DNA of 34,429 nt from a virus (taxonomy: Duplodnaviria > Heunggongvirae > Uroviricota > Caudoviricetes): the IMG/VR virus record IMGVR_UViG_2693429554_000013. One strand, written 5' to 3'. Below the pieces are notes generated by a model. That model had not been told where the DNA came from and searched no databases. It saw nothing but the letters and a program-made list of their open reading frames with translations. This document shows, in pieces, positions 4,078-34,429 of this stretch; within the stretch, counting starts at the first letter, position 1, and each line of letters begins with the position of its first letter. A program made the translations under genes and the position numbers.

Positions 4078-4281
4078 ATGGCAATTAAGCATTTTCCTGT
4101 CGTTCGTTTTACCTCCAGAGGACGTGAATACGAAGTCGACGAACGCCTGATTACCACAATCGACAAACACCGTTCAGAAAAGGATGCACATCACATCTAT
4201 CTCACTGACGGCACTTACTTCTGCGCCACGAATGTGGTGCAGGTGAACCTTATCCGACAGGTACAGGAGTCACGCAGATGA
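4078..4281 (+). CDS. Hypothetical early protein
   Basis: 67 aa; strong SD AAGGAGG upstream of ATG. Confidence 0.55.
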   Translation: MAIKHFPVVRFTSRGREYEVDERLITTIDKHRSEKDAHHIYLTDGTYFCATNVVQVNLIRQVQESRR

Positions 4282-4523
4282 CCATTCTGGATTATATCGC
4301 CGCCAATCCGGGGTGTAGCGGTGGAGAAATCGCCGCAGCACTGAATACCCCAACCACAGCCATTAATGCGGAGTTACGCCGACTCTGGCGCAGCGGTTCA
4401 GTCATAAGAAAAGAGCGCAAAACAGGCGGTCGCTTTTCTTACCAGATAAACCCGATGCCGTTCGGGTGCGGCAATCCACTTACCAACATGTTTAACCAGC
4501 TACTGAAGGAAGCCAGAGCATGA
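4278..4523 (+). CDS. Small winged-helix-like DNA-binding protein
   Basis: 81 aa; ATGA overlap with previous gene; GGEIAAALNTPTTAINAELRRLWRSGSV resembles a winged-helix recognition region. Confidence 0.5.
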   Translation: MTILDYIAANPGCSGGEIAAALNTPTTAINAELRRLWRSGSVIRKERKTGGRFSYQINPMPFGCGNPLTNMFNQLLKEARA

Positions 4524-4819
4524 GCGCCATCAACCACCAGGAATTACGCGAACTGGCGACTGACCTTCAACGAATGGCAACGCATCAAAAATTACTGGCA
4601 TTTCGCGCAATGCTCTCGCCGTCTGCTGTGCTGGCATTGCTGGATGAGCTGGAGCACGCCAGAACCACGGCTCCTGCCATTCGCCTGACGCTCCATCATG
4701 AAATCGCTGATTTCTGCGCGACGTTGGAGGCTCCAGGCGAACCGGAAACGCCGGAAGCGATGCAGCAGGAGCTGCTGCAACGCATCGACAACGTTTTCGA
4801 TTTTTTCCTTAACCAGTAA
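4520..4819 (+). CDS. Hypothetical early protein
   Basis: 99 aa; ATGA overlap with previous gene. Confidence 0.5.
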   Translation: MSAINHQELRELATDLQRMATHQKLLAFRAMLSPSAVLALLDELEHARTTAPAIRLTLHHEIADFCATLEAPGEPETPEAMQQELLQRIDNVFDFFLNQ

Positions 4820-4833
4820 GGGAGTAAATCACA

Positions 4834-5385
4834 ATGAAACTCAAACCAATGGGTACACCTGGTGTGGCTCCGGCACATGTAAAACCATGGACACAGCAGG
4901 AGGATGAACTTTTAGCCACGTTATACCACACCCACACAGCGCCGGAGCTGACAAAGCACCTTCAGAGAACCGAGTCAGCAATACGAAGCCGCATTCGTCT
5001 TTTGCTCTCTCAGGGGGTTATTCACGCCAAACAAACTCCACTGAGTACAAAAGAACTCAGCATGCTCATCAGGAATCGCCACACAAAAACCATCCGGGAA
5101 CTCGCGAATGAGCTGGGGCGCTCGCCATCCACGGTAGAACTGAACCTGAGAAAAAGAGGGTATCGGTTCAGGAAATACGGGGAACTCCACCACAGAACCA
5201 GATACAGCGATCACCTAGTGGAGCTGGTAACTGAACTGCGTGATGAGAAGGGGATGACATTCAGCGAAATCAGGAAGCACATCCGGGACACGACCGGGAT
5301 ATCCCTTAAAAGATGGGTCCCCGCCAGGCTTTACGCACGATATACCGCCGCTGATACCGTGCTTTGCGAACTACTACCGGACTGA
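4834..5385 (+). CDS. Multi-HTH DNA-binding protein with Myb/SANT-like N-terminal segment
   Basis: 183 aa; WTQQEDELLATLY...TESAIRSRIRLL plus two further HTH-like segments (TIRELANELGRSPSTV; MTFSEIRKHIRDTTGISLKRW). Confidence 0.55.
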   Translation: MKLKPMGTPGVAPAHVKPWTQQEDELLATLYHTHTAPELTKHLQRTESAIRSRIRLLLSQGVIHAKQTPLSTKELSMLIRNRHTKTIRELANELGRSPSTVELNLRKRGYRFRKYGELHHRTRYSDHLVELVTELRDEKGMTFSEIRKHIRDTTGISLKRWVPARLYARYTAADTVLCELLPD

Positions 5386-5476
5386 GTAACCACTATGTAC
5401 ACACAAAAAAACCGCTTGCCATGCCGCAATCAGTCAGGTTACATTTCCGCTGCACCTCATAAAACGGGTGCCGGGA

Positions 5477-5694
5477 TTGGAACCCCGCTGACTATACACG
5501 CGCACAACCGCGCCAGCGGTTTTTTTGTGCGTACCGTATCGCCACGTCTTTTTCGCGTCAGAATTATGGTGGGGCGTATGGGGCCGACTTCGGTCGGGCC
5601 GGGTTCGTGTATAGCCGGTAGTTCCAACCCTGTACGTCTCACCACCCCGAGCTTGGAACCTCTGGATGGTGAGTTTTCAAAACTTACTATACAC
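5477..5694. repeat. Three copies of a bipartite motif TTGGAAC(C)-N-CTATACAC (two direct, one inverted) flanking a UUCG-loop hairpin
   Basis: Copies at 5477-5499 (direct), 5607-5629 (inverted), 5653-5694 (direct); hairpin CCGAC-TTCG-GTCGG at 5584-5597. Confidence 0.45.
5506..5527 (+). terminator. Candidate Rho-independent terminator
   Basis: Short GC stem ACCGC/GCGGT with GCCA loop followed by TTTTTT; the stem is short. Confidence 0.35.
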
Positions 5695-5705
5695 GAGGCC
5701 ACACC

Positions 5706-5936
5706 ATGGCAAACCGCAAACAGCACCGCGCTATCGCGGAGCGTCGTCACATCCAGACTGAAATCAACCGCAGACTTTCCCGCGCATTCCGCGTCGCTAA
5801 AATCATGCACATCAATATGCTGCATGAGCGTAGCTGCGAACTTTCAAACCTCTACTCATCCGCTGTTTTCAGCTATCTGGCAGATGATCTGCGCGAGCTT
5901 CAGCAGCTCATCCAGCAGCAAAACAAACTCCATTAA
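5706..5936 (+). CDS. Hypothetical small basic protein
   Basis: 76 aa, charged/helical composition; preferred over the overlapping low-complexity ORF 5395-6012. Confidence 0.5.
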   Translation: MANRKQHRAIAERRHIQTEINRRLSRAFRVAKIMHINMLHERSCELSNLYSSAVFSYLADDLRELQQLIQQQNKLH

Positions 5937-6008
5937 TTCTGGTTCCGGGCCTTTCCTGCACCTTGCGGCGGGAGGCCTTCGCACATCTGTAACAAGAGGA
6001 TTGCCGCA

Positions 6009-6374
6009 ATGATTCTCGCCAACGACTTTCTTGAATACCTGCTCAACACAGAGCGCGATCTTGCCGTTCGCGCGCGTGACCGTTATGACATGTACCTGAA
6101 ATCCCTGCCTGTACCACAGCCCGCTGACGGAAAGATTGTTATTGATGGCCGCTACATGATTGACAGCCACGAGGGAAATTACAGGCTTTACCGCATTGAA
6201 GGCGGCACCCCGTCCGTTATTGGCATTTACCAGCGCCCATCCTCTGCAATCGTCGATGTGATTGCAGACAGCATCCGCATCACACATCGCTATGCCGACA
6301 CAGAAGACACCGTGCTGGAAATTCAGCGGCTGGCTACAGTCTGCCGCGACACCCTGAACGGTATGACGAAGTAA
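6009..6374 (+). CDS. Hypothetical protein upstream of the replication gene
   Basis: 121 aa; RBS AGAGGA; no motif recognised. Confidence 0.5.
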   Translation: MILANDFLEYLLNTERDLAVRARDRYDMYLKSLPVPQPADGKIVIDGRYMIDSHEGNYRLYRIEGGTPSVIGIYQRPSSAIVDVIADSIRITHRYADTEDTVLEIQRLATVCRDTLNGMTK

Positions 6375-21807: not shown

Positions 21808-21995
21808 AAAGCCATCTGGGGGCCATTGATCGCAATGACCTTACCCGGATGCTGATCCTGCGCCGCCACTGGCTGCCCGGCGAGGATGACTCGCCGCAGT
21901 CACTGGCTGCCGCCGTCTGGCTGGATAACCACTACTGGGAAAATATGAGCATCGCCGTCAATAACGGCATTATCCGTGCTTTTAAGGGATCGTAA
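21798..21995 (+). CDS. Minus-1 frameshift extension of the tail assembly chaperone (E+E'-like product)
   Basis: The -1 frame is open for 65 codons from the heptamer to a TAA whose last base is the first base of the tape-measure ATG. Confidence 0.5.
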   Translation, partial: KKIKSHLGAIDRNDLTRMLILRRHWLPGEDDSPQSLAAAVWLDNHYWENMSIAVNNGIIRAFKGS

Positions 21996-24091
21996 TGTCA
22001 CAACAGCGCCTTGAATTACTTCTTGAACTGACAGACCGCCTGACAAGGCCGTTGCGTGCAGCCGGACGACAGGTTCAGGGATTTGCTGCAACAAGTCGGG
22101 GAGCCTTTCGGGACATTGCTACCGGAGGCGCTGCGCTCTGGGGAGTGGGTGCAGCCATTCAGGGGGCACTGATGCCAGCCATTGAAATGGACAGGGCGCT
22201 CGGTGAGGTGAAATCACTGGGCGTCGCAGAGTCCGGATTGCGTAAACTCAGCCGCGCCGCCGTTGATTTCACTATGGAATACGGCGGGGCTGCGCAGGAT
22301 TTTGTGCGTGCTTCTTACGACATCCAGTCAGCCATTGCCGGGTTAACTGACGATGAGCTGTCCCGCTTCACCACCGCATCAGCAACGGTGGCAGCAGCAA
22401 CCAAATCCAGCAGCCAGACCATTACCGCCTACATGGGCACCATGTACGGCATCTTTAAAGACCAGGCTGATGCCATGGGAAAAAGCAAATGGGTGGAGCA
22501 GGTCGCCGGGCAAACCGCCACCGCCGTGCAAATGTTTAAAACAACCGGCGATAACATGTCAGCAGCGTTCACCACGCTGGGTGCCAGTGCAAAAGCGGCC
22601 GGTATTGATGCGGCTGAACAGTTCGCCGTGCTGGGACAACTACAGGCCACCATGAGTGGCAGCGAGGCCGGGACAAAATACAAGGCATTTCTTGCCGCAG
22701 TAGGCAGCGCCCAGAAAAAGCTGGGGCTTAATTTCGTGAATAAAGACGGCACGATGAAAAGTGTTGTCGAGATCATGAAACTTATCAGGGGTAAATTTGG
22801 TGATCTGTCAAAAGTGGCTGATTCCGATTTGCTGAAAAGCGCCTTTGGCTCCGATGAAGCTGTGGCCATGATTAAATTACTCAATGCGGACATTGGCGGA
22901 CTTGAAAAGAATATCGCCACGCTGGGCAATATCAAAGGTATGGATAAGGCTGTCGAAATGGCGCAGGCCATGGCTGATCCATGGGAACAGGCCGCCGCAA
23001 TTATTAACGGCATTCGCATCGAAATCGGCACGCAGTTGCTGCCTGTTCTGTACCCGTTTATCCAGAAAAGCAACGAAGGCGGTAAATCCTTTGTTGCCTG
23101 GTTACGTCTGTATCCCAATATCACACGGGCTATTGGTTTACTGTCTGCCGCCCTGCTGGGCATTGCCGCAGTGGGTGCCGTTGTCAACATTATGGTGGGT
23201 GTGGCGAAGTTTGTCTGGACAGGACTGCGGCTGGTCTGGCTGGCAGCAGTTGCACCCCTGAAGATTCTCATTCTGCTGAAACGCACACTGACGGCTACCA
23301 TGTGGGCATTCACTGTAGTTGCCCGAACGGTCAGGGCGTTGTATCTGGCCATGTCCATTGCTATGGGAACATACAACGTCAAAGCAAAAATTCAGCTGGC
23401 GCTGCTGAAATTACAGCGCGCCGGACTCTGGCTTTATTCTGTTGCGCTGGGTGCCGCCGGCATAGCAATGAAAATCTACACCGCAGTCACCAGCGGAGCT
23501 GCAATTGCAACACAGTTACTTTTCAGCCCCATCACATTAATCATCCTGGCACTGGCTGCGCTGGGCGTGGGCATTTATTTCCTGATCACCCGCTGGGATG
23601 AGATTAAAGTCGCGCTGATGGATACTGCCGCCTTTCAGTGGGTGGCTGAAATGGTCGGCAGTATGGGGGCATGGTTCGGCAATGCATGGAACACAATCCA
23701 GGACGGCTGGAATGCACTGGTTAACTATTTTTCCACGCATTCACCACTGGATGCCCTGAAGGATCTCGCGGGCGGCATCCTGAATATTTTCAGTAACCTC
23801 TGGGAACTGGTGAAACAGTCCTTCAGTGATTCATGGGGCTGGATTGTAGGCAAGCTCAACATGATCCCCGGCGTCAATATCGACACACCGGAAAGCACAG
23901 GAAGTGGCGAAGGCTCCGTATTAACCGGCGGCAAAGCCATCAGTGCGGGACCGGGCGGCATTGCGGCAGAGATGCAGAACAACAGCGAAAACCAGACCAC
24001 CATCGACAACTCCCGTCGTGTGGTTAACGTCAATGTGCAGGATCCATCCCCTGCCCGTCTTAACGAGTGGATGGAGCTGCATGCATACTGA
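21995..24091 (+). CDS. Tail tape measure protein
   Basis: 698 aa; Ala/Gly-rich helical N-terminal half and hydrophobic central segments; position after chaperone. Confidence 0.85.
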   Translation: MSQQRLELLLELTDRLTRPLRAAGRQVQGFAATSRGAFRDIATGGAALWGVGAAIQGALMPAIEMDRALGEVKSLGVAESGLRKLSRAAVDFTMEYGGAAQDFVRASYDIQSAIAGLTDDELSRFTTASATVAAATKSSSQTITAYMGTMYGIFKDQADAMGKSKWVEQVAGQTATAVQMFKTTGDNMSAAFTTLGASAKAAGIDAAEQFAVLGQLQATMSGSEAGTKYKAFLAAVGSAQKKLGLNFVNKDGTMKSVVEIMKLIRGKFGDLSKVADSDLLKSAFGSDEAVAMIKLLNADIGGLEKNIATLGNIKGMDKAVEMAQAMADPWEQAAAIINGIRIEIGTQLLPVLYPFIQKSNEGGKSFVAWLRLYPNITRAIGLLSAALLGIAAVGAVVNIMVGVAKFVWTGLRLVWLAAVAPLKILILLKRTLTATMWAFTVVARTVRALYLAMSIAMGTYNVKAKIQLALLKLQRAGLWLYSVALGAAGIAMKIYTAVTSGAAIATQLLFSPITLIILALAALGVGIYFLITRWDEIKVALMDTAAFQWVAEMVGSMGAWFGNAWNTIQDGWNALVNYFSTHSPLDALKDLAGGILNIFSNLWELVKQSFSDSWGWIVGKLNMIPGVNIDTPESTGSGEGSVLTGGKAISAGPGGIAAEMQNNSENQTTIDNSRRVVNVNVQDPSPARLNEWMELHAY

Positions 24092-24432
24092 TAAACCGCT
24101 TTACATTGATTTGCTCATCACCGGCCGCAATCTCACGCTGAACAGCGCCAGTGAGCCGGTGTTATGCAACAACAGGGAAAGTATTGCCCAGGACTGCCAG
24201 CACGCCATCATTGAGAGCGGACTGGCAACGCGCCTGCTGGCTGAAAAAAGCCCGACACTTCGTGCCGACATCATGATGCAGATGACACTGCTGATTGAAG
24301 ATGATGAGCGCATCACACCCGGCACGGTCAGTGTGACAGAAGAAACCCCGCTTTCTGGTCGCCTGCTGATTAGCGCCCACACCGAAGATTTTTTTGAACC
24401 CCTGACTTTTACGGTATCTCTTGATGATTAAC
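24088..24432 (+). CDS. Small tail/baseplate protein (gpW/gp25-like position)
   Basis: 114 aa from ATG 24088 overlapping the tape-measure stop; precedes baseplate J-like gene. Confidence 0.4.
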
Positions 24433-25608
24433 GGCAAACCCACCGCAGATTACGAGCGCATTCTGGCTGATAACGGCATGCCGGTAACCGAAGAACAGGC
24501 ACGCGCTGAATTTGAAGCCATTGTCAAAGACGAAGGGCTTATCACCAACACATCCCGCATGTCGCCGTTCTGGCGACTGATTACAGCCATCACCACAAAA
24601 CCCGTGATGTGGCTGAAAGATGCGCTGGTTAATGTGGTGATGAAAAACCTGTTTCTGGCCGATGCCAGCGGTGTATTCGTTGATGTTTTTGCCTGGGCGG
24701 TAAACCTGCAACGCAAGGCCGCCACGCACGCAGCCGGCGTGATTCGTTTCACCAAGAACGACATTGATCGCGCAGTTACAGTGCCGGCCGGTACGCAGAT
24801 TCAGACAGAACGCATTAACGGCGTGATTTATACGCTGACCGTTGTCAGGGATACCGTTATTCCGGTAGGAACACTCAGCATGAACATCGATGTTTCTGCG
24901 GAACAGGCCGGAGCCGGCTTTAACCTTGCGCCGGGATATTACCGCATCCTTCCGGTGGCGATTGATGGTATTGCCGGCGTTGAGAACGATGAAAACTGGC
25001 TGACCACACCGGGTGCCAACGAAGAAAGCGATGACGAGCTGCGTGATCGTGTTCGCAATCAGTTTAATCTTGCCGGCGCTTATCACACAGATGCTGTTTA
25101 CCGGGGATTAATTGCCGGCGTTGCCGGCATCAGTGCCGACCGCATCTATTTTCTGCATGACGCACCACGCGGCCCCGGCACAGCAAATGCTTACATTCTG
25201 CTGGATACCGGCATCGCATCCGAACCGTTCGTTGATGCCGTAAACGCATTCATTAACGATGAAGGTCATCACGGACACGGTGATGATCTGCGCTGTTTTT
25301 CCATGCCTGAAACACGCCACACCCTGACCGTGACACTCTGGTTATATGCAACACTGAACCTCAGCGATGAGGAAATTCAGACGTTATTGCGCAATGTGGA
25401 AAATCTGGTTCGCTGTGCATTTCGAGAAAACAGCGATTATGACGTTCAGAAAACATGGCCGTACAGCCGTTTCAGCATGTCCAGAATGGGCGAAGAGATC
25501 CACCAGGTATTTCCGCAGGTGGAGTCGGTTACATTTTCTCTTCCGGATATTCTCAGTGATCTGGCTGTTCCTCGTCTGGAATCCCTTACTGTGGAGGTGA
25601 GCGCGTGA
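24424..25608 (+). CDS. Baseplate J-like protein
   Basis: 394 aa; size and position between small baseplate gene and fiber cluster. Confidence 0.7.
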   Translation: MINGKPTADYERILADNGMPVTEEQARAEFEAIVKDEGLITNTSRMSPFWRLITAITTKPVMWLKDALVNVVMKNLFLADASGVFVDVFAWAVNLQRKAATHAAGVIRFTKNDIDRAVTVPAGTQIQTERINGVIYTLTVVRDTVIPVGTLSMNIDVSAEQAGAGFNLAPGYYRILPVAIDGIAGVENDENWLTTPGANEESDDELRDRVRNQFNLAGAYHTDAVYRGLIAGVAGISADRIYFLHDAPRGPGTANAYILLDTGIASEPFVDAVNAFINDEGHHGHGDDLRCFSMPETRHTLTVTLWLYATLNLSDEEIQTLLRNVENLVRCAFRENSDYDVQKTWPYSRFSMSRMGEEIHQVFPQVESVTFSLPDILSDLAVPRLESLTVEVSA

Positions 25609-26240
25609 AACTTCCGGAGATCCCTGAATTCCCGCTCCCCACCTGGATGAATAAAGGCGAGCCGTTAACGCTGGCACATTCATCGCATCGCTACTGGGAA
25701 AAGGTATACAGCTGGCTGACGTGGCCACTACAGCAGATTGATGTCGACACCTGCGCAGAGCCTTTACTTAACCTGCTGGCTTATCAGCGCAATATCACCC
25801 GATTTAAAGGTGAGCCGGTTTCGTTATTTCGCTTAAGAGTGAAACACGCGTTTATTAACGCTCAGGACTCTGGCGAACGCGCCGGCTTCGAACGCATCTT
25901 TAAGCGTCTTGGCGTGGGAGACGTTAAAACACTGGAACGGCAACTGCAGCATGACTGGGACGTTATTTTACTGCGCATTAATGACACCCAGTTAAGTGAA
26001 AACAACGCGCTGATGATGCAGCTCGTGCGCCAGTATGGTCGTACCTGCAGGCGCTATTTCTTTCAGGTAATCAATACAACCACTGCCCGGCTGACAGCCG
26101 GCACATTTGATGGTCATTACAGGTATCACACAGCAGAAGCAACGGTGAGAAAGGACACCATCTGGTTAACCGCTTCGCTACAGGCAGGACATTACGGCCT
26201 GTCCGTGGAGCATTACACATTACAGGCAGACGAAGCATGA
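25605..26240 (+). CDS. Tail protein I-like baseplate component
   Basis: 211 aa; GTG start overlapping previous stop with GGAGGTG RBS; precedes tail fiber. Confidence 0.5.
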   Translation: MKLPEIPEFPLPTWMNKGEPLTLAHSSHRYWEKVYSWLTWPLQQIDVDTCAEPLLNLLAYQRNITRFKGEPVSLFRLRVKHAFINAQDSGERAGFERIFKRLGVGDVKTLERQLQHDWDVILLRINDTQLSENNALMMQLVRQYGRTCRRYFFQVINTTTARLTAGTFDGHYRYHTAEATVRKDTIWLTASLQAGHYGLSVEHYTLQADEA

Positions 26241-27937
26241 GCACAATTATTACTGAACAGTACGAACACTGGTGTGCGAATCAGCTCATCAGTGGAAAAC
26301 CTGCGCGCCCGGATACATTTGTTTTTGCATATATTCCGGGACAGGATGAATCCGCAGAGATCCCCCGCGATGAGATACTCCCTGATGAATCCATGATTCA
26401 GTATCGTGCGCCGGTCACCCAGTACGGCCTCCTGTCGCCGAACGCGACCGCGTTTTCCATCATTCTGGACACGACAGTCGGCGACTTCGAATACAACTGG
26501 ATCGGTCTGCTGAACGAAGAAAGCGGCGTGCTCTGCATGATTGCACACACACCTCGTCAGCAAAAAATTAAAACAGCGAACGGCGTGCAGGGAAACAACC
26601 TGATCCGCACATTTTCCATGGAGTTTGACGGCGCGGCCGCAGCAATGCATATCGATGTCAGCGCCGATGTCTGGCAGATTGATTTCACTGCGCGCCTTGC
26701 AGGAATGGATGAGGCCCGCCGGCTGCTGGCGTTTGATCACTACGGTGAAGCCGCTTTTCTGGGGGATGGTTTTCAGGTCAGCTATCAGGATGGTACCGCT
26801 ACTGTTGCCGCCGGAGTGGGTTATGTGGGAGGTCTGCGCGTCAGTCTGCGCAAACCTTACAGCCTGCCGGCTGCGGTCGGGGATACCCTCTGGATTGATG
26901 CAAGCTGGCAGGGATTTGTTACCGGCGAATGGAATACCGTTTTTACGTTCTGCGCCCGCCAGGAACATGCGTCTTATACAGACGGTAACGGCTTCCGACA
27001 CTTTGTCGCGCCACTTGCAAAAATGACAGGAGACGGCCCACAGGACCTGCGCCCGGAGACACCCGACGAGGAACAGAGCAATGCACTGGCAGAGCACGAA
27101 AAATCCCGCCATCATCCGGATGCAACACTGAAGGAGAAAGGCTTTGCGCAGTACAGCAACTCCACCGACAGCGACGCAGAAGACCGCGCCGCCACATCAA
27201 AGGCAGTAAAAGCTGCAATGGATAAAGCAAAAGACGCTGTTGAGCGCGACGGCGACACCATGACCGGGGAGCTGAAAATCTGTGGTGTTAATGCACTGAG
27301 GATTTTCAACGAAGCTTTTGGCCTGATTTTTCGTCGCTCTGAAGAGTGCCTGCATCTTATTCCCACCCGGGAAAATCAGGGCGAAAATGGCGATATTGGT
27401 CCCCTGCGTCCGTTCACTATTAATCTGCGGACGGGTGAAATATCCATGTCGCATAAAGTGTCTGTTGGTGGCGGCTCTCAGGTGAATGGTGCGCTGGGTA
27501 TCGGCGTTCAGAACGCGCTGGGCGGAAACTCAATTGCTTTCGGGGATAACGATACCGGCCTGAAACAGAATGGTGATGGCCTGCTGGATGTTTATGCCAA
27601 TAGCGTGCATGTGTTGCGTTTTCAGAGTGGCAGCATTCAGAGCAATAAACCTGTAAACGTTACCGGGCGGGTAACACCGTCAGACTACGGAAACTTTGAT
27701 GCCCGTTACCAGACCAAAACAGGCGGCGTGCAGGATGTGCGTTATGGTTCCGAAATGTATTACAACCCGGGAGGTAACCAGATATCCTGGACATTTCGCT
27801 CACCTTCAGGCCATGGATTATCTGGTATTAATGTGCAGGAAACCGGAAGTAATTCGGCAGATAACATCGGCGGCGTGTATTACCGACCGCTTCAGAAACT
27901 GATTAACGGCACCTGGTATAACGTGACGAGTGTTTAA
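26237..27937 (+). CDS. Tail fiber protein
   Basis: 566 aa; Gly/Asn/Ser-rich C-terminal half; followed by a tail fiber assembly gene. Confidence 0.75.
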   Translation: MSTIITEQYEHWCANQLISGKPARPDTFVFAYIPGQDESAEIPRDEILPDESMIQYRAPVTQYGLLSPNATAFSIILDTTVGDFEYNWIGLLNEESGVLCMIAHTPRQQKIKTANGVQGNNLIRTFSMEFDGAAAAMHIDVSADVWQIDFTARLAGMDEARRLLAFDHYGEAAFLGDGFQVSYQDGTATVAAGVGYVGGLRVSLRKPYSLPAAVGDTLWIDASWQGFVTGEWNTVFTFCARQEHASYTDGNGFRHFVAPLAKMTGDGPQDLRPETPDEEQSNALAEHEKSRHHPDATLKEKGFAQYSNSTDSDAEDRAATSKAVKAAMDKAKDAVERDGDTMTGELKICGVNALRIFNEAFGLIFRRSEECLHLIPTRENQGENGDIGPLRPFTINLRTGEISMSHKVSVGGGSQVNGALGIGVQNALGGNSIAFGDNDTGLKQNGDGLLDVYANSVHVLRFQSGSIQSNKPVNVTGRVTPSDYGNFDARYQTKTGGVQDVRYGSEMYYNPGGNQISWTFRSPSGHGLSGINVQETGSNSADNIGGVYYRPLQKLINGTWYNVTSV

Positions 27938-27939
27938 CA

Positions 27940-28491
27940 ATGTTGCATTTAAAAAATATTACTGCGGGCAATCCGAAAACCGCAGAACAATATCAGATGA
28001 CAAAACAATATGGTGTCACCTGGCTTTTTTCGGAAGACGACAAAAACTGGCATGAAGAACAGAAGAACTTTGCCAGCGACACAATAAAAATGGTTTACAC
28101 CGGGGACGGGCGCGTGGTGTGGGTCGGTAAGGATGTGACAGGCATTGAACCCCGTAATGCCAGTGTTATTGAAGTTCCGGATATTACCGCTAATCGCCGT
28201 ATTACCGTGCCTGGTTACTGGTTTTACCGCGATGGCAATTTTATCTTCGACTACAAACTTAAAGCGGAAGATGAGCGTGATGCACTGTTAAAACAGGTCA
28301 GCATCATGACCAGCGAATGGGAAAAAGACCTGCTGCTGGGATTAATCAGCGACGAAGACAGGGAAAAACTGAAAGCCTGCCGTATTTATACAAAAACGTT
28401 ACGGGAGATGACATTCAGCCAGGTTACAGATAAAGCATCGTATGCCGCGATTGTATGGCCAGAATTACCGCAGAACATTAGCGAGAATTAA
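27940..28491 (+). CDS. Tail fiber assembly chaperone (Tfa / gpG-like)
   Basis: 183 aa; C-terminal GLISDEDREKLKACRIYTKTLREMTFSQVTDKASYAAIVWPELP resembles the conserved Tfa C-terminus. Confidence 0.7.
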   Translation: MLHLKNITAGNPKTAEQYQMTKQYGVTWLFSEDDKNWHEEQKNFASDTIKMVYTGDGRVVWVGKDVTGIEPRNASVIEVPDITANRRITVPGYWFYRDGNFIFDYKLKAEDERDALLKQVSIMTSEWEKDLLLGLISDEDREKLKACRIYTKTLREMTFSQVTDKASYAAIVWPELPQNISEN

Positions 28492-28497
28492 GAAGTA

Positions 28498-29355
28498 ATG
28501 AGCGCACTGTTGACGAAAGCATTTGAGAAATGGGTTGCTGAATGCACCGCCAGTAATTTACCGGCACGCCCTGACGCTATTGTTTTTGCACTGATGGAGA
28601 GAGAGCCTTCCAGAGATGATACGATTATTCCTCCTGAAAAAATCACGCACAGGGTAAATAACCTACATTATGGAAAACTGGATCAAAACAGCATTGTGTG
28701 TAGTGCCATTGTTGCTGATAACGAAAATTTCAACTACGACTGGATTTGCCTGGTTCATCAAGCCAGTAACACATTGTGCGGAGTTATAAGTGGTCCTGTT
28801 CGACATAAACACACAGGAGAAACTATCATCCGGAATTTCGCCATCATTTTTAGCGGACTGCCACAAATCGCTCATATTACTACTCCGCCACAAAGCTGGC
28901 AGGTAGATTTTTTTTCTGAATTAAATAACAAGGCTCCTCTGGAAAGCCCGTCGTTTTCCGGAGCGCCAACCACTCCAACACCACCAAATGATGCAGCGGG
29001 TCTTGAGATTGTTAATGCCAAATTTGTACGAATGTTGATAGCTGAGGCAATGGCTCCTCAGGAAAAACCTGCCCTCCCACCGGAAACACCAAAGCCCGCT
29101 TTGCAAATCAGCAGAGTACTGCTTCAGTCCGGGGAACAGACAAGGGGGCCTTTAACAATTAATAGAAAATTTGTTCAGTCAGGGCGCACCATCCACGAAC
29201 CGATAACCATTAACAACATACAATTACAAACCGGACGTCTGATGAGCGAGCCGGTAACAGTTAACAGGGGCTTATTTGTACCAGCATATCAAACCAATGA
29301 GCCACTGACAGTAGCTCGGGCAGTACTGCAGTTTGCGGTTTTATCTGCTGCTTAA
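28498..29355 (+). CDS. Second tail-fiber-like protein: fiber N-terminal domain with a different, repeat-containing C-terminus
   Basis: First ~150 aa align with the fiber N-terminus (PARPDAIVFA, NYDWICLV, WQVDF); Pro-rich linker then four ~14-aa repeats (GPLTIN / EPITIN / EPVTVN / EPLTVA). Confidence 0.6.
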   Translation: MSALLTKAFEKWVAECTASNLPARPDAIVFALMEREPSRDDTIIPPEKITHRVNNLHYGKLDQNSIVCSAIVADNENFNYDWICLVHQASNTLCGVISGPVRHKHTGETIIRNFAIIFSGLPQIAHITTPPQSWQVDFFSELNNKAPLESPSFSGAPTTPTPPNDAAGLEIVNAKFVRMLIAEAMAPQEKPALPPETPKPALQISRVLLQSGEQTRGPLTINRKFVQSGRTIHEPITINNIQLQTGRLMSEPVTVNRGLFVPAYQTNEPLTVARAVLQFAVLSAA

Positions 29356-29379
29356 TAGAAACTAAATAAGGGGAATATT

Positions 29380-30438
29380 TTGAATATTATTAATCTGGAA
29401 GGGTTCCGACAAATTCCGGCGAATGAGGGATTGTGCGAGAACTATTATTCAACAAATATTATTTCAGCACTGAACGAAAACGGTGTCACGCTTATCAATG
29501 ATATGTCCGGTTCTGTAACATCCGTCTGTCGTGGCACTCAGGCCGTAAATACTGTAGAAAGAACGGGGCTGATTTTTACGACACCCTCATATGTCACACT
29601 GTACAGCACACTCCCGGACTTAAAGACCTCAGCTGTACAGCTGGGATTTCGTCTGACATTAAGTGCGGGAAAGAAATATTCATCTTCGCCATCCCACATC
29701 AGGATTAATGGCTATTCATTTACAACCCCGTATCCTGATGAAGCAGCCAGTTATTACTATGAAATTTTCGCAACGCGAAACGAAAACGGCTATGTCTCAG
29801 CCAGTCTGTACTGCAACCGCTCATTAGCTGGAAATACATCGTTTTATGTATCAGATGACCGGACTGACAAAATTCAGGTGAGTATTGGTAGTGGTGACAA
29901 TATTTTTTCATCGGGTGCATCCGGCACGTTAATGCTGGGTGATATGTACTGTGGAACAGTGGCATACGGAAAAAATAACAGCGCGGAACCCGCCCTGCTT
30001 GGGGCTATTGAGGTCAGATACAGCCCGGTAACCGCATTTACCGGGGGGAGTGCGAAAAACTCGCTGGATAAAGATATCGTCACGGGACTGAACACCTCTG
30101 ACAGTGATGCCGGATACCTGATGCTCTCACCGTCCCCGGAGGCGGCACAGGTTACGTTTGGTGCGGTAGATAACAGCAATGGCGATCTAGTCGCAGTTAT
30201 GGCGGCTGTCACTTATCGCAGTGCGGACGCCCCCAATAACTGCCTGGCCTGGAGTGTAAAAAGCGGAAGCCATGAAGGAGAAACAGTTACAGAGAATGAC
30301 GTGCAGGCTGACACAAACAGCTGGACGACTGTCTCACAGAGTTTTACGACACAGCCTGACGGAGATATCCCATTTACTGAAGGAGAGATAATTTTTGCAA
30401 CGGAGTTATATAACCAACCCACAACCTCCCGACAGTAA
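29380..30438 (+). CDS. Hypothetical protein, possible distal receptor-binding partner of the second fiber
   Basis: 352 aa; TTG start with AAGGGG RBS; Ser/Thr/Gly/Asn-rich; AT-rich by eye. Confidence 0.45.
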   Translation: MNIINLEGFRQIPANEGLCENYYSTNIISALNENGVTLINDMSGSVTSVCRGTQAVNTVERTGLIFTTPSYVTLYSTLPDLKTSAVQLGFRLTLSAGKKYSSSPSHIRINGYSFTTPYPDEAASYYYEIFATRNENGYVSASLYCNRSLAGNTSFYVSDDRTDKIQVSIGSGDNIFSSGASGTLMLGDMYCGTVAYGKNNSAEPALLGAIEVRYSPVTAFTGGSAKNSLDKDIVTGLNTSDSDAGYLMLSPSPEAAQVTFGAVDNSNGDLVAVMAAVTYRSADAPNNCLAWSVKSGSHEGETVTENDVQADTNSWTTVSQSFTTQPDGDIPFTEGEIIFATELYNQPTTSRQ

Positions 30439-30470
30439 CCGCGCAAGTACCAGCAATATCTCACACACCT

Positions 30471-31220
30471 ATGAATATTCATTTGAAAGACAATAAAAAT
30501 AACCGCCCTGACTGGGCGGTCTCAATTCTGCACCCGCACCCCATAAACATCACCAGTTCAATGATTTGTTTCCACCCATGGTCAGTAAATACAGGGAATA
30601 CCACACCATCGGGACGCTACCTCAGTCCGGATAATGCAGTGTCTGCACTTTTACCGTATCTGACAGAAAATACACAAAAAGACGTCGTGGCGATGTTATT
30701 CTGCGCCCCGTCTGTTGCTGAGTTTTTATCGCTTGCCAGACAATTTTCAGGTGCATTTCCGTTGCCAGAAATAGGGAGAATGTCCCGTATGATCTCCAGC
30801 CAACTTTCGCTGACCATCAGCAGAATGCAAATCCCCGCCAGACCGGTAACATCACTTCCGGAACCGATAATGCTGTCGACACAGACCACTCGCAGCATGT
30901 CGCTGGCTGCAACCATTGCACAGGCAGCTACTCCTGCTGCCACATCACCGGAAACATTGTCATCAGAGCTGCGTCAGTTCGCGAATGCGAGAGATAAAGC
31001 TCTACAGGAAATCGCTGATCAGCAGGCCGCACTCCGGCAAAAATTTTGCCCGGTGTGGCGCTTTTGCTACAAGGGAGTCCTTAGCCAGGCCGCAGCGCTG
31101 ATACAAAAAAACATCCCACACCCCGAGTGGGTTTTTACAGCTGTGATGCTGTTCGTCGGCGATGATCTCTCATCACTAAGGGAAGCACTACATGACCCAG
31201 ATGATTGTCCTTGCGCTTGA
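30471..31220 (+). CDS. Hypothetical protein, start uncertain
   Basis: ORF-track ORF; 5' part AT-rich without SD, so true start may be the internal ATG near 30781. Confidence 0.3.
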   Translation: MNIHLKDNKNNRPDWAVSILHPHPINITSSMICFHPWSVNTGNTTPSGRYLSPDNAVSALLPYLTENTQKDVVAMLFCAPSVAEFLSLARQFSGAFPLPEIGRMSRMISSQLSLTISRMQIPARPVTSLPEPIMLSTQTTRSMSLAATIAQAATPAATSPETLSSELRQFANARDKALQEIADQQAALRQKFCPVWRFCYKGVLSQAAALIQKNIPHPEWVFTAVMLFVGDDLSSLREALHDPDDCPCA

Positions 31221-31767
31221 CGGGGAAGCCATTCTGCTGCGCAACATCACCGTCAGCGCCACCATGCAACTACCGGATAAAGATATGTCCGGACAGTCAA
31301 CCAGCACCACGAGCGCTCAGCAGGGAAACAAGGCTAAAGAGCTGCGCGTGTCGGGGGTTATTGACTTTAACGATGAAGCTATTCTGACCCGTATTTTTCA
31401 GCTTGCGGAGGCAACAGAAAGTAACGGAGCTAAAAAAACGTATCGCATTGCCAACGCTACCGCGAAGGCAATCAATATGCGACAGGGGGTATTTTCTGGT
31501 GGCATTGATGCCACGGAACAACAGGGGAAAATGCACTGGCAGGTCACCTTTACTCTCAGGGAAAAATTAAGCGTGCCGGAAAAAGCATCGGCACGCAGTG
31601 GCTCACAGAAAACAATCGCAAAGCAGCAGACACAGAACGGCAGTGAGCTGACGCCGGATAAAGGAATGAATACCCAGGAAACTTTCTGGAAAAATATCAA
31701 TGATGGTATTGGCTCCGGGCTGGACTGGATTGGCATCGGGAGCGTGAAAAAGGAAGGGAAAACATGA
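31192..31767 (+). CDS. Putative tail/baseplate protein
   Basis: 191 aa; upstream of and overlapping the large hub-like gene. Confidence 0.4.
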   Translation: MTQMIVLALDGEAILLRNITVSATMQLPDKDMSGQSTSTTSAQQGNKAKELRVSGVIDFNDEAILTRIFQLAEATESNGAKKTYRIANATAKAINMRQGVFSGGIDATEQQGKMHWQVTFTLREKLSVPEKASARSGSQKTIAKQQTQNGSELTPDKGMNTQETFWKNINDGIGSGLDWIGIGSVKKEGKT

Positions 31768-33461
31768 AATTAATACAACGCTGTATTATTAATGGCGAAC
31801 GGGTGGAAATTGCCGATATAAACCTTGTTCTTACCCTGAATGCTGCCGGTCGTGGCTTCATTTCTGTTAACAATCTGTCACCCGAACACAGCCTTGCCGG
31901 CGCAATGGTACAAATTGATCTCGGCCGTGACGGTGAAGCATGGCGCTATTTCTCCGGCTACATTGAGCGCGATCAACCTGCTGAAAATGGCTCACGTCGC
32001 CTTTTTATTCGTGAAGCGGCTGCTGTGCTGGATTTTGATTTCCCTTGCTCCATGCAACACCCGACGTTGCGGGGGGTACTCGATAATCTGGGGCGACAAA
32101 GCGGTATCGTTTTTATCACTCCGGATGCGGATTATGCCAGTATACCAACTCCCTACATCACCCACAGCGGCAGCGGAGCACAACTGCTCAGCCAACTGGG
32201 GCGAGCATTCAGTATCAGCGATTACGTCTGGCACCCTATGCCGGACGGTTCTGTATTTGTGGGAAGCGCAGCTGATTCACGATTTGCCAGTATTACAATG
32301 CCGGATATTCCGCAACAGTACACACTCGGGCAAAGCGGCGGAAACAGCATCGACATCATGTTTATGGAAACTGTGCGACCGGGCGTGAACCTACCGTCTG
32401 GGCGCATTACCCGTGTAGCCCTCAACAACGAGAAAATGACCCTGACATGGGAGCGCCTTACCGCCACGGGTAACCCTGTTTCCAAATCACCATTACGCAG
32501 ACAAATGGAAACACAGTTCCCGGAACTGGCCAGCGGTACGCTACATACCCGGCTGGCGCGCGTCATTGCGCCAACGGAGCCCACCACCCTGGGCGATGTG
32601 GCCGACAGTTTCCGCCCACGCTACGCCGTCGATGTGCAGTTGCTTGATGAGAACGGCAACGATAAAAGCGACACGCCCGTTTACCCGGCAGTACCGCTCC
32701 CCGTCCCCATGGCTGGCAGTGAGGCGGGATGTTTTGCCTACCCACCGGCAGGCACCATCGTGGAAATATCCAACATTGAAGGACGTCCGGACAAACCCGT
32801 TATCAGGCAAATCTTACCCGCTGGCCATAACCTGCCTGATGTAAAGCCCGGCGAACAGCTGCAGCAACAGCGCGCAGAAGTGTTTCAGCGCGTCACGGCT
32901 GACGGAAGCTGGCACAGAGAAACCGACCAGCAAATCAGAGAACATTCAGCCCGGCGAACCATTAACAGCGATCAGGAGGAACGCACAACAACAACCAGAA
33001 CAACCACAGTACAGGCAAACGATATAACCAGCGTTCTGGGAACCAGCAAGCTAATGGCAGGACAAATAGAGCACCTTACTACCGGCCATTACGCGATCGC
33101 AGCCAGTGAGCATATCCAGATGGTAGCGCAGGATTTGCTGACTAAACTCAAAGGGGCGACATCCACGATTGAACACGACCTTACTGAAAACGTGGGAGGC
33201 CGCAGAACATGCCGAGCGGACGGTGGCCTGGAGTTTACAGCCCCGACAGTATTTATTGGTCGCGGTGACTCACGGGAAAAATCCGGACTTAATCTGCTGA
33301 CGTTGTTGATTGATATTCTGGATCTGGTTCAGTTGCTGGCCACACACACTGCAAACCACACCCACAGCAACACCGGCGCACCAACAAACAGCAGCGAACT
33401 TGCCGCAGACGCCCAACAGGCTACGAGCCTGCGCGAAAAATACGGTGACCTTATCGCCTGA
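31764..33461 (+). CDS. Putative baseplate hub/spike protein (gpD-like)
   Basis: 565 aa; last gene of the tail operon, where P2-like phages carry D; assignment by position and size only. Confidence 0.45.
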   Translation: MKLIQRCIINGERVEIADINLVLTLNAAGRGFISVNNLSPEHSLAGAMVQIDLGRDGEAWRYFSGYIERDQPAENGSRRLFIREAAAVLDFDFPCSMQHPTLRGVLDNLGRQSGIVFITPDADYASIPTPYITHSGSGAQLLSQLGRAFSISDYVWHPMPDGSVFVGSAADSRFASITMPDIPQQYTLGQSGGNSIDIMFMETVRPGVNLPSGRITRVALNNEKMTLTWERLTATGNPVSKSPLRRQMETQFPELASGTLHTRLARVIAPTEPTTLGDVADSFRPRYAVDVQLLDENGNDKSDTPVYPAVPLPVPMAGSEAGCFAYPPAGTIVEISNIEGRPDKPVIRQILPAGHNLPDVKPGEQLQQQRAEVFQRVTADGSWHRETDQQIREHSARRTINSDQEERTTTTRTTTVQANDITSVLGTSKLMAGQIEHLTTGHYAIAASEHIQMVAQDLLTKLKGATSTIEHDLTENVGGRRTCRADGGLEFTAPTVFIGRGDSREKSGLNLLTLLIDILDLVQLLATHTANHTHSNTGAPTNSSELAADAQQATSLREKYGDLIA

Positions 33462-34288: not shown

Positions 34289-34429
34289 ATGTCGCAAAAA
34301 TCGCTTACGGCCATCACGTTCTGCGTGACGGTAATCCTCATCATCTGGATGCTGCACGGTTCGCTGTGTGAAATACGGATGAGCTTCTGGGGAGCGGAGT
34401 TTGCGGCGTTCTTACAGTGTAAGCAGTAA
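34289..34429 (+). CDS. hok: Hok/Gef-family type I toxin peptide (HokA-like)
   Basis: 46 aa MSQKSLTAITFCVTVILIIWMLHGSLCEIRMSFWGAEFAAFLQCKQ; TM helix plus SLCEIR...AAF signature; SD AAAGGAG 7 bp upstream. Confidence 0.75.
   Translation: MSQKSLTAITFCVTVILIIWMLHGSLCEIRMSFWGAEFAAFLQCKQ

Follow-up and report, generated by a model that had tools for sequence, protein, structure and literature searches.

A candidate bipartite accessory adhesin at the second-fibre position of an HP1-like Escherichia prophage

Background

What is encoded by a phage gene that begins like a tail fibre and ends in short repeats, and by the gene that follows it and resembles no annotated family? The question is raised by two open reading frames (ORFs), here termed ORF285 and ORF352 after their lengths in amino acids (aa), which lie downstream of the main tail fibre gene in the caudoviral record IMGVR_UViG_2693429554_000013. 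This stretch of 34,429 nucleotides (nt), analyzed at its full length, is referred to below as the window. A sequence-only reading of positions 28498-30780 had suggested either a two-component fibre or a fibre N-terminal domain that tethers a non-fibre protein to the baseplate, and both alternatives fit the data on the swapped-in cassette described here. We consider it somewhat better than an even chance (roughly 55%) that ORF285 and ORF352 form a bipartite accessory adhesin at the second-fibre position of this lineage. For temperate coliphages, host range is generally inferred from the tip of the fibre and the chaperone that goes with it; in this case there is an apparent second recognition device, drawn from two unannotated families. 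The two genes are:

28498-29355, + strand: ORF285, annotated in RefSeq at the same coordinates in identical prophages
29380-30438, + strand: ORF352, annotated in RefSeq at the same coordinates and with the same start in identical prophages

Results and discussion

ORF285 combines a fibre anchor with a repeat tail

ORF285 can be divided into five parts:

28498-28911, + strand: N-terminal fibre attachment domain (aa 1-138), a PF12571 match, belonging to this lineage's second fibre
28912-29046, + strand: conserved fibre motif KAPLxSPxFxGxPTTPTPP...NAxFVR (aa 139-183), with many tail-fibre PHROG matches; upstream recombination junction
29047-29076, + strand: beginning of the Pro-rich linker (aa 184-193); AEAMAPQEKPALPPETPKP covers this part together with the next one
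29077-29331, + strand: five 17-aa repeats, one weak and four clear (aa 194-278), the proposed docking module
29332-29355, + strand: hydrophobic C-terminal strand FAVLSAA (aa 279-285) and the stop codon

The attachment domain matches PF12571 over aa 3-138 with 36.8 bits (cut-off 23), and aa 1-142 align with the N-terminus of the 566-aa main fibre at 34% identity (expectation value, E, 7e-22), PF12571 being present in both, which bears out the claim that ORF285 repeats the attachment domain of the main fibre. Its identity to the second-fibre N-domains of related prophages is about 70%. The motif at aa 139-183 is also present in the second-fibre variants of these relatives and in lambdoid Stf-type proteins. 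The Pro-rich linker that had been noticed is likewise real, as aa 139-205 contain 18% Pro, and in two loci with remote homologues, L070 and L073, such a linker likewise lies ahead of the repeats (L numbers denote loci compared with the window).

The repeats had been described as four copies of about 14 aa; four clear copies are indeed present (SGEQTRGPLTINRKFVQ, SGRTIHEPITINNIQLQ, TGRLMSEPVTVNRGLFV and PAYQTNEPLTVARAVLQ), and their period is exactly 17, with a weaker copy leading them. They follow the motif (E/G)P-L/I/V-T-I/V-N-R-x-x-L-Q-S/T-G, with Pro at aa 218, 235, 252 and 269 in the clear copies and at aa 201 in the leading one. The self-score at an offset of 17 is 85, against -12.5 ± 8 for shuffled sequences, and was reached by none of 5000 shuffles. 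As no tandem repeat is seen at the DNA level in this region, the repeats appear to be old and maintained at the level of the protein. The repeat module found no match in Pfam, NCBIfam or the PDB (the last by sequence and profile searches), and a word-index search of a large database with the 95-aa repeat tail also returned none. ORF285 is not a complete tail fibre of the P2 H, Mu S or lambda Stf type, for it has no globular tip and the gene downstream of it belongs to neither PF02413 nor DUF4376. When ORF285 was modelled alone with AlphaFold2 (AF2), only the N-domain was folded, the predicted local distance difference test score (pLDDT) being 62-90 per ten-residue block across aa 1-110 and fading by aa 118.

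ORF352 is predicted to adopt a lectin-type fold

The earlier description of ORF352 as a Ser/Thr/Gly-rich protein with a TTG start holds: Ser, Thr and Gly account for 12%, 10% and 8% of its residues (30% together), and the start is preceded by a candidate ribosome-binding site.

29368-29373, + strand: Shine-Dalgarno-like AAGGGG, 6 nt ahead of the ORF352 TTG start, read from the sequence

A gap of 24 nt separates the two genes, which share a reading frame, and between them the TAA of ORF285 is directly followed by a second in-frame stop, TAG, at 29356-29358. Their spacing on the + strand is tight, no strong terminator lies between them, and both are in line within the late tail operon. Members of the ORF352 family form 26 clusters at 90% identity, with 19 representatives among 1.84 billion proteins, and nearly all named members are from E. 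coli, with one from Raoultella. No Pfam family was matched by ORF352 at E <= 0.01 and no relevant NCBIfam family at E <= 1; the sole PHROG match is phrog_8291, whose function is not annotated. It belongs to neither of the tail fibre assembly families (PF02413, Caudo_TAP; DUF4376), and sequence and profile searches of the PDB with ORF352 and its family profile, and likewise with ORF285, gave nothing meaningful. The family is under purifying selection, the ratio of nonsynonymous to synonymous substitution rates (dN/dS) being 0.11-0.25 in all but one of 21 pairs; the exception, at 0.46, is a near-identical pair with a dS of 0.058.

An AF2 model of ORF352 built from the family alignment is confident (pLDDT 88.5, predicted TM-score 0.87) and all-beta with two domains. 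The model contains a curved beta-sandwich jelly-roll that can be superposed on solved members of the concanavalin-A-like lectin/glucanase fold, and Foldseek searches of the PDB with it retrieved legume lectins and toxin receptor-binding domains. The remark that there is no obvious receptor-binding domain applies to ORF285 only; the downstream protein is modelled with a lectin-type fold. Among predicted viral structures the best full-length matches are siphophage proteins of about 350 aa (TM-score 0.6-0.67, E 1e-14 to 1e-11), the top one belonging to Achromobacter phage AchV4, where it is labelled a 'virion structural protein' under a BFVD accession that is not mapped to a specific gene. Proteins of the AchV4 tail cluster labelled 'virion structural protein' have been detected in virions by liquid chromatography-tandem mass spectrometry (PMC7996906). 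On the basis of the model we predict that ORF352 is a receptor-binding head, presumably one that binds glycans.

The repeat tail and ORF352 occur together on unrelated anchors

We scored as a pair any ORF352-like gene whose locus also encodes a protein terminating in 17-18-aa repeats (or a short remnant of them) and a hydrophobic C-terminus. An ORF352 homologue adjoins a repeat-tail protein in 35 of the 36 loci with a readable upstream region. All 28 IMG/VR loci with an ORF352 homologue encode a repeat-tail protein, which lies directly upstream at a gap of 22-30 nt in 26 of them; in the other two a fibre and a Tfa gene intervene, and the repeat-tail protein upstream of them is gp48-like and has seven repeats. 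The reverse search, with the repeat module, recovered 28 loci, 25 on contigs already found through ORF352 and three new ones in which the contig ends before a partner gene could be seen. Such pairs are also present in seven further contexts (L002, L006, L007, L069, L070, L073 and L074), and L065 has a degenerate 64-aa form of the repeat tail.

The anchors to which the repeat tail is joined vary from context to context. They include PF12571 in the window, the Stf N-domain PF08400 (L002, L033 and L069, from lambdoid prophages and a Raoultella contractile-tail prophage), the Mu gp48 baseplate wedge protein PF10076 (L007, L018 and L025), which carries 4-7 repeats, and the P2 gpI domain PF09684 (L070). 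In the last of these, the P2-like locus of the distant homologue P0150, a 300-aa gpI (4097-4999) consists of PF09684, a Pro-rich linker, four to five 18-aa repeats (SVPVKAINGTTINAGNVL) and the end YLLVTEV; P2 gpI itself has about 176 aa. It is directly followed by the distant ORF352 homologue and then by a normal H-like fibre and Tfa. Distant ORF352-like proteins are thus paired with diverged repeats such as this 18-aa form, and the layout of Pro-rich linker, repeats and hydrophobic end is kept. Some distant homologues in lambdoid prophages are instead preceded by a free ORF of 64-65 aa (L065, 4794-4988, degenerate, ending in TYLIQN; L074, 3802-3999, ending in MLVSSEV), located between a complete short Stf-like fibre with the C-terminal signature WP..L.WS.G..PSPG.TRT and the ORF352-like gene. 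This free ORF may represent a separate adaptor peptide. Across the repeat-tail contexts the C-termini (FAVLSAA, FAVVTSE, FAVTNE, FAFVTPLQ, YLLVTEV, MMISSEV and MLVSSEV) are hydrophobic and often followed by S/T-E. ORF352 proteins that are nearly identical (88-93% at the aa level) have partners whose repeat modules share only about 35% identity, which implies that any recognition between the two rests on consensus features of the repeats.

Two of these loci also share a larger segment: the 369-aa fibre, Tfa and DUF4376 remnant of the Mu-like L006 (5019-8919) recur in the lambdoid L002 (8176-12204), where they follow the ORF352 homologue. In L002 a whole Mu-type distal tail cassette is thus grafted behind a lambda Stf N-domain, where the 369-aa fibre with its Mu-type N-terminus may be unable to attach.

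A cassette exchanged within a variable second-fibre slot

N-domains of the ORF285 type were found in 48 complete E. coli genomes, and those relatives that were examined share the tail module of the window. In strains A36 (L003) and ETEC1716 (L004) fibre 1 and Tfa are followed by a fibre 2 (645 or 431 aa) that carries this N-domain, and then by a DUF4376 protein, a homologue of the next gene of the window (ORF249), ORF34 and a baseplate protein; further fibre-2 variants have 350-430 aa. As relatives carry differing second fibres at this place, the variable slot is genuine in the lineage and the N-domain of ORF285 belongs to it. The comparison with related prophages that had been suggested as a check therefore shows a slot that does vary, fibre 2 being 431, 645 or 350 aa in length or disrupted. 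The cultured relative SI7 has neither a second fibre nor a DUF4376 protein, and its ORF249 homologue follows Tfa. A decayed slot is seen in strain A2 (L005, 7001-8584), where a truncated fibre 2 is followed by a fragment annotated as a shikimate transporter.

In a blastn comparison with A36 the window is collinear up to 29009, within the conserved fibre motif, and again from 30523, and by this alignment 29010-30522 is a replacement, standing where A36 has the distal part of its fibre 2 and the DUF4376 gene. Part of the lambdoid prophage L002 is 90% identical to 28939-30365, the homology beginning at 28939; there the same motif, linker and repeats are joined to a lambda Stf-type N-domain (PF08400) and are followed by an ORF352 homologue. 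Hence, the proposal of an acquired cassette stands for 29010-30522 and fails for the remainder of 28498-30780, the N-domain of ORF285 being the lineage's own and ORF249 a core gene. The locus clearly illustrates how the distal half of a fibre and the partner gene can be exchanged jointly through recombination at a conserved motif. The downstream junction comprises the following:

30439-30522, no strand assigned: unique 84-nt spacer at the downstream junction, matching neither the HP1-like relatives nor the lambdoid or Mu-like contexts
30471-31220, + strand: ORF249 (phrog_1677/phrog_31292), a core tail-module gene outside the cassette

ORF249, earlier taken for a third and poorly defined ORF, is in fact conserved in all relatives and in SI7. 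Its first 17 or so codons fall in the junction spacer, and its 237-aa homologues in the relatives follow the DUF4376 gene. The true start of ORF249 is uncertain, because the ATG at 30471 has no obvious Shine-Dalgarno sequence and the start differs from that in the relatives. At the same junction, inside the annotated 5' end of ORF249, there is a terminator-like hairpin on the minus strand (30501-30521), with an 8-bp stem containing 6 GC pairs and followed by a T-run.

The lower guanine plus cytosine (GC) content that had been noted by eye is confirmed on windowed calculation and is modest: 28498-30438 has a GC fraction of 0.463, whereas stretches of equal size in the structural module have 0.524 ± 0.033, only 6% of them being as low. 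At third codon positions (GC3) the values are 0.39-0.47 in the low-GC stretch and 0.52-0.59 in the other tail genes outside it. The dip is not confined to the two genes, as it begins already in the Tfa gene, the lowest stretch starting near 27950.

A model for the pair and its alternatives

Taking these observations together, we propose that ORF285 is a stalk, whose N-domain would plug into the baseplate as that of the main fibre does, and whose 17-residue repeats and hydrophobic end would form a docking tail devoid of its own head domain. ORF352, made separately from its own ribosome-binding site, would bind this tail and provide the receptor-binding surface, either as one copy per chain or as one per repeat, and would be carried on the virion. 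Its concanavalin-A-like beta-sandwich would most likely recognize, and possibly cleave, a surface polysaccharide, with a potential effect on host range. Recombination at the conserved fibre motif would have put the cassette, from this motif to the end of ORF352, in place of the distal portion of fibre 2 and the DUF4376 protein, and movement of the cassette between phages would involve both the motif and the short intergenic spacer. A bolder possibility, which we advance tentatively, is that the 17-aa repeats and their hydrophobic end make up a transplantable socket, sufficient in itself, that would recruit a small lectin-fold receptor-binding protein onto any tail protein to which it is fused. 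The tail would then already have been transferred to four or more anchors unrelated to one another (the PF12571 fibre, lambda Stf-N, Mu gp48 and P2 gpI), besides giving rise to the free adaptor of about 65 aa, and the number of repeats (4-7) might set the count of lectin heads displayed.

Several points weigh against the bipartite adhesin. The matches to the lectin fold span only about 130-175 of the 352 residues of ORF352, at 5-15% identity, and no ligand site or active-site motif could be identified in the model. Variation within the family is diffuse and even, with no obvious hypervariable receptor loops. In the AF2 monomer model the pLDDT of ORF285 is below 50 from aa 118 to 285, and the monomer is uninformative for the tail. 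In L076, the most remote relative inspected (profile E 5e-05), no clear repeat tail precedes the ORF352-like gene. The Mu gp48 and P2 gpI proteins are present in a single copy per baseplate wedge, and fibre N-domains are trimeric; a single docking geometry would have to suit both settings. A tblastn search of 50,697 deposited phage genomes with ORF352 and the repeat module gave no match, and the prophages that carry the pair may be poorly inducible. Finally, the position immediately downstream of a fibre gene is also that of a chaperone.

This last point leads to the alternative that ORF352 serves as an assembly chaperone dedicated to the ORF285 repeat tail, in the role of the DUF4376 or Tfa protein that it displaced. 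It would then be missing from the virion or would only cap the tip, the repeat shaft itself being the functional appendage. ORF352 sits exactly where the relatives have their DUF4376 protein, directly after fibre 2, fibre-chaperone pairs show an equally strict pairing with the upstream C-terminus, and the ORF285 tail does not fold by itself in AF2. Nevertheless, ORF352 is not similar to PF02413 or DUF4376 proteins and is about twice their size, is modelled as a two-domain lectin-type beta-sandwich like an annotated phage virion structural protein, and serves, as a single type, tails that are only about 35% identical; moreover, the tail has no globular tip to be folded, and the fibre would be left without a binding head. 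We therefore think this alternative unlikely. We give little weight to another possibility, that ORF352, tethered in the same way as in the adhesin model, is a polysaccharide lyase or glycosidase acting as a baseplate depolymerase that degrades capsule or O-antigen: it contains no PL7, GH16 or related sequence motif and matches no Pfam or NCBIfam family, non-catalytic carbohydrate-binding modules (CBMs) and lectins score almost as high as enzymes of this fold in the structural comparison, and its conserved residues could equally constitute the docking interface.

That the pair is an inactive remnant or passenger (for example a moron or exclusion gene like those of the P2 Z/fun slot), left when recombination truncated fibre 2 and without a role in adsorption, also seems improbable. 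Its absence from the deposited phage genomes would suit such an origin, as would the low GC, suggestive of foreign DNA, the untidy downstream junction with an orphan minus-strand hairpin and a new 5' end of ORF249, and the clearly chimeric or decayed state of some contexts (L002, L005 and L006). Against this, both ORFs are intact, with near-identical copies in 11 complete E. coli genomes, ORF352 is under purifying selection, the arrangement in two parts is found again on four types of anchor and among deeply diverged homologues, no defence model matches the genes, and they are in line within the late tail operon. As the two ORFs share a frame and are only 24 nt apart, we also considered that they are a single fibre gene split by a nonsense mutation or joined by programmed readthrough. 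This is hardly credible given the tandem stops TAA TAG followed by a Shine-Dalgarno sequence and start codon, and the two loci in which fibre and Tfa genes lie between the pair; we rule it out on the gaps of homologous pairs, which are 22, 23, 24 and 30 nt, so that the frames differ.

If the bipartite adhesin, and in particular recruitment of the lectin by the tail, is correct, it would explain a set of 'hypothetical proteins' in prophages of E. coli, E. albertii and Raoultella, and would mean that adhesins can be mounted directly on the baseplate wedge proteins gp48 and gpI. The pair is passed as a cassette among tails of the HP1-like, P2-like, Mu-like and lambdoid types, and if the repeat tail recruits the lectin, it would offer a compact, transferable tag with which to engineer phage or tailocin specificity. 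The socket, if real, would amount to a new and very compact docking principle for phage adhesins, usable to retarget phages, tailocins and contractile injection systems.

The prophage and other features of the window

The window represents an intact-looking HP1-like (Peduoviridae-type) Escherichia prophage, encoding regulators, a gpA-like replication protein, portal, terminase, capsid, sheath, tape measure and baseplate proteins. Near-identical copies of the prophage are found in E. coli E200139, adjoining raiA/bamD, and in E. albertii NBRC 107761, and among cultured phages Salmonella SI7/SW5 and Cronobacter ESSI-2 come closest, with less than 50% aa identity. The genes around the pair are:

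21995-24091, + strand: tape measure protein, followed by a DUF2590 protein
24421-25608, + strand: baseplate protein J
25605-26240, + strand: I-like protein
26237-27937, + strand: main tail fibre, 566 aa, with PF12571, PF03406, gp37_trimer and many tail-fibre PHROGs; outside the cassette
27940-28491, + strand: Tfa, the main-fibre assembly protein, 183 aa (PF02413, E 8e-22; phrog_136); outside the cassette
31192-31767, + strand: HP1_ORF34 baseplate protein
31764-33461, + strand: baseplate protein, 565 aa

The tail module has an HP1-like order (tape measure, DUF2590, J, I, fibre, Tfa and further tail or baseplate genes including HP1_ORF34), so that the comparison of the slot with the P2 Z/fun hotspot, made in the sequence-only reading, is inapplicable. 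The window lacks a P2-type slot between G and FI, the FI and FII genes do not follow the ORF352 region, and there are no occupants of the exclusion or defence kind, the PADLOC defence-system models giving no match for ORF285, ORF352 or ORF249.

Other observations concern different parts of the prophage. Two adjacent RNA elements, both Rfam matches at gathering level, lie inside the 5' part of a regulator-like ORF at 5395-6012 (phrog_995):

5452-5526, + strand: isrK Hfq-binding RNA, 68.7 bits
5562-5649, + strand: C4 antisense RNA, 81.3 bits

Judged by these matches, the pair looks like an antisense immunity element of the P1/P7 type, here in an HP1-like prophage. The tip of the main fibre and Tfa (about 27260-28380) are 93.8% identical at the nt level to a record of Actinobacillus phage vB_Apl-pPE4 and 88% identical to the Shiga toxin (Stx) phage phiP27; so high an identity to a phage from a Pasteurellaceae host is unexpected and suggests a very recent exchange or a mislabelled record. 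At the right end an ORF on the + strand (34289-34429) runs out of the window; by the annotation of the identical E. coli prophage it is a Hok/Gef-family toxin gene, beyond which that prophage has Com and DNA-methyltransferase genes.

Comparison with known systems

Two-component adhesins and receptor-binding proteins mounted on adaptors are already known, in the form of gp38 on gp37 of T2, the lactococcal Bpp proteins and branched tailspikes. The T-even gp38 sits non-covalently on the C-terminal end of a fibre that has no binding head itself and provides receptor recognition, and, like ORF352 after ORF285, it is a separate protein encoded just downstream of the fibre. However, ORF352 has no sequence or Pfam relation to gp38, matches no Pfam or PHROG adhesin family, and is modelled as a lectin-type jelly-roll rather than with the gp38 fold; further, in T2/T6 the adhesin docks on a fibre, whereas the proposed docking element here is a 17-aa repeat tail found on the wedge proteins gp48 and gpI as well as on fibres. 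The fibre and assembly pairs P2 H/G, Mu S/U and lambda Stf/Tfa, and the lineage's own fibre 2 with DUF4376, share with our pair the same genomic logic and slot, including cassette exchange at conserved fibre motifs, and in all of them the downstream product acts on the C-terminus of the upstream fibre, as we propose for ORF352. They differ in that ORF352 is larger, has a predicted lectin-type fold and is not a PF02413 or DUF4376 protein, and in that ORF285 has no tip for a chaperone to fold.

In TP901-1 and Tuc2009 (BppU-BppA-BppL), separately encoded carbohydrate-binding proteins, including an accessory one, are hung on a baseplate adaptor; these, however, belong to siphophages of Gram-positive bacteria, are unrelated in sequence, use trimeric receptor-binding proteins and have no 17-aa repeat tail. 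G7C gp63.1/gp66, CBA120 TSP1-4 and the SP6/K1-5 systems combine a conserved N-terminal anchor with interchangeable receptor-binding proteins attached through dedicated docking modules, allowing modular exchange of host range. In these branched systems docking is by folded domains on trimeric tailspikes, whereas here it would be by a short repeat peptide and a small, probably non-fibrous lectin-fold protein. The adenovirus fibre shaft, a triple beta-spiral with repeats of about 15 aa of the GPLTVSEGKLALQTS type, presumably resembles the (E/G)PLTINRxxLQSG unit in its period and pattern of residues; this is only a lead, as nothing relevant came from searching the PDB with the repeat module by sequence and by profile, and the fusion to gp48 and gpI, taken as single-copy per wedge, argues against an obligate trimeric shaft.

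The closest full-length structural matches of ORF352 are the proteins of about 350 aa from AchV4, Serratia JS26, Providencia Kokobel1/Stilesk, Cronobacter JC01 and Hafnia Enc34 (Foldseek E 1e-14 to 1e-9, TM-score 0.5-0.67), which nevertheless share only 11-16% sequence identity with it. The pair has no detectable sequence relation to an annotated adhesin, a fibre-assembly family, any other Pfam or PHROG family searched, or a solved structure, and we found no account of it in the literature, which was searched by accession and by concept. What appears to be new here is that a short repeat peptide would take the place of a folded docking domain and is attached to baseplate wedge proteins as well as to fibres. 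ORF285 and ORF352 thus probably represent an undescribed plug-in module for host recognition.

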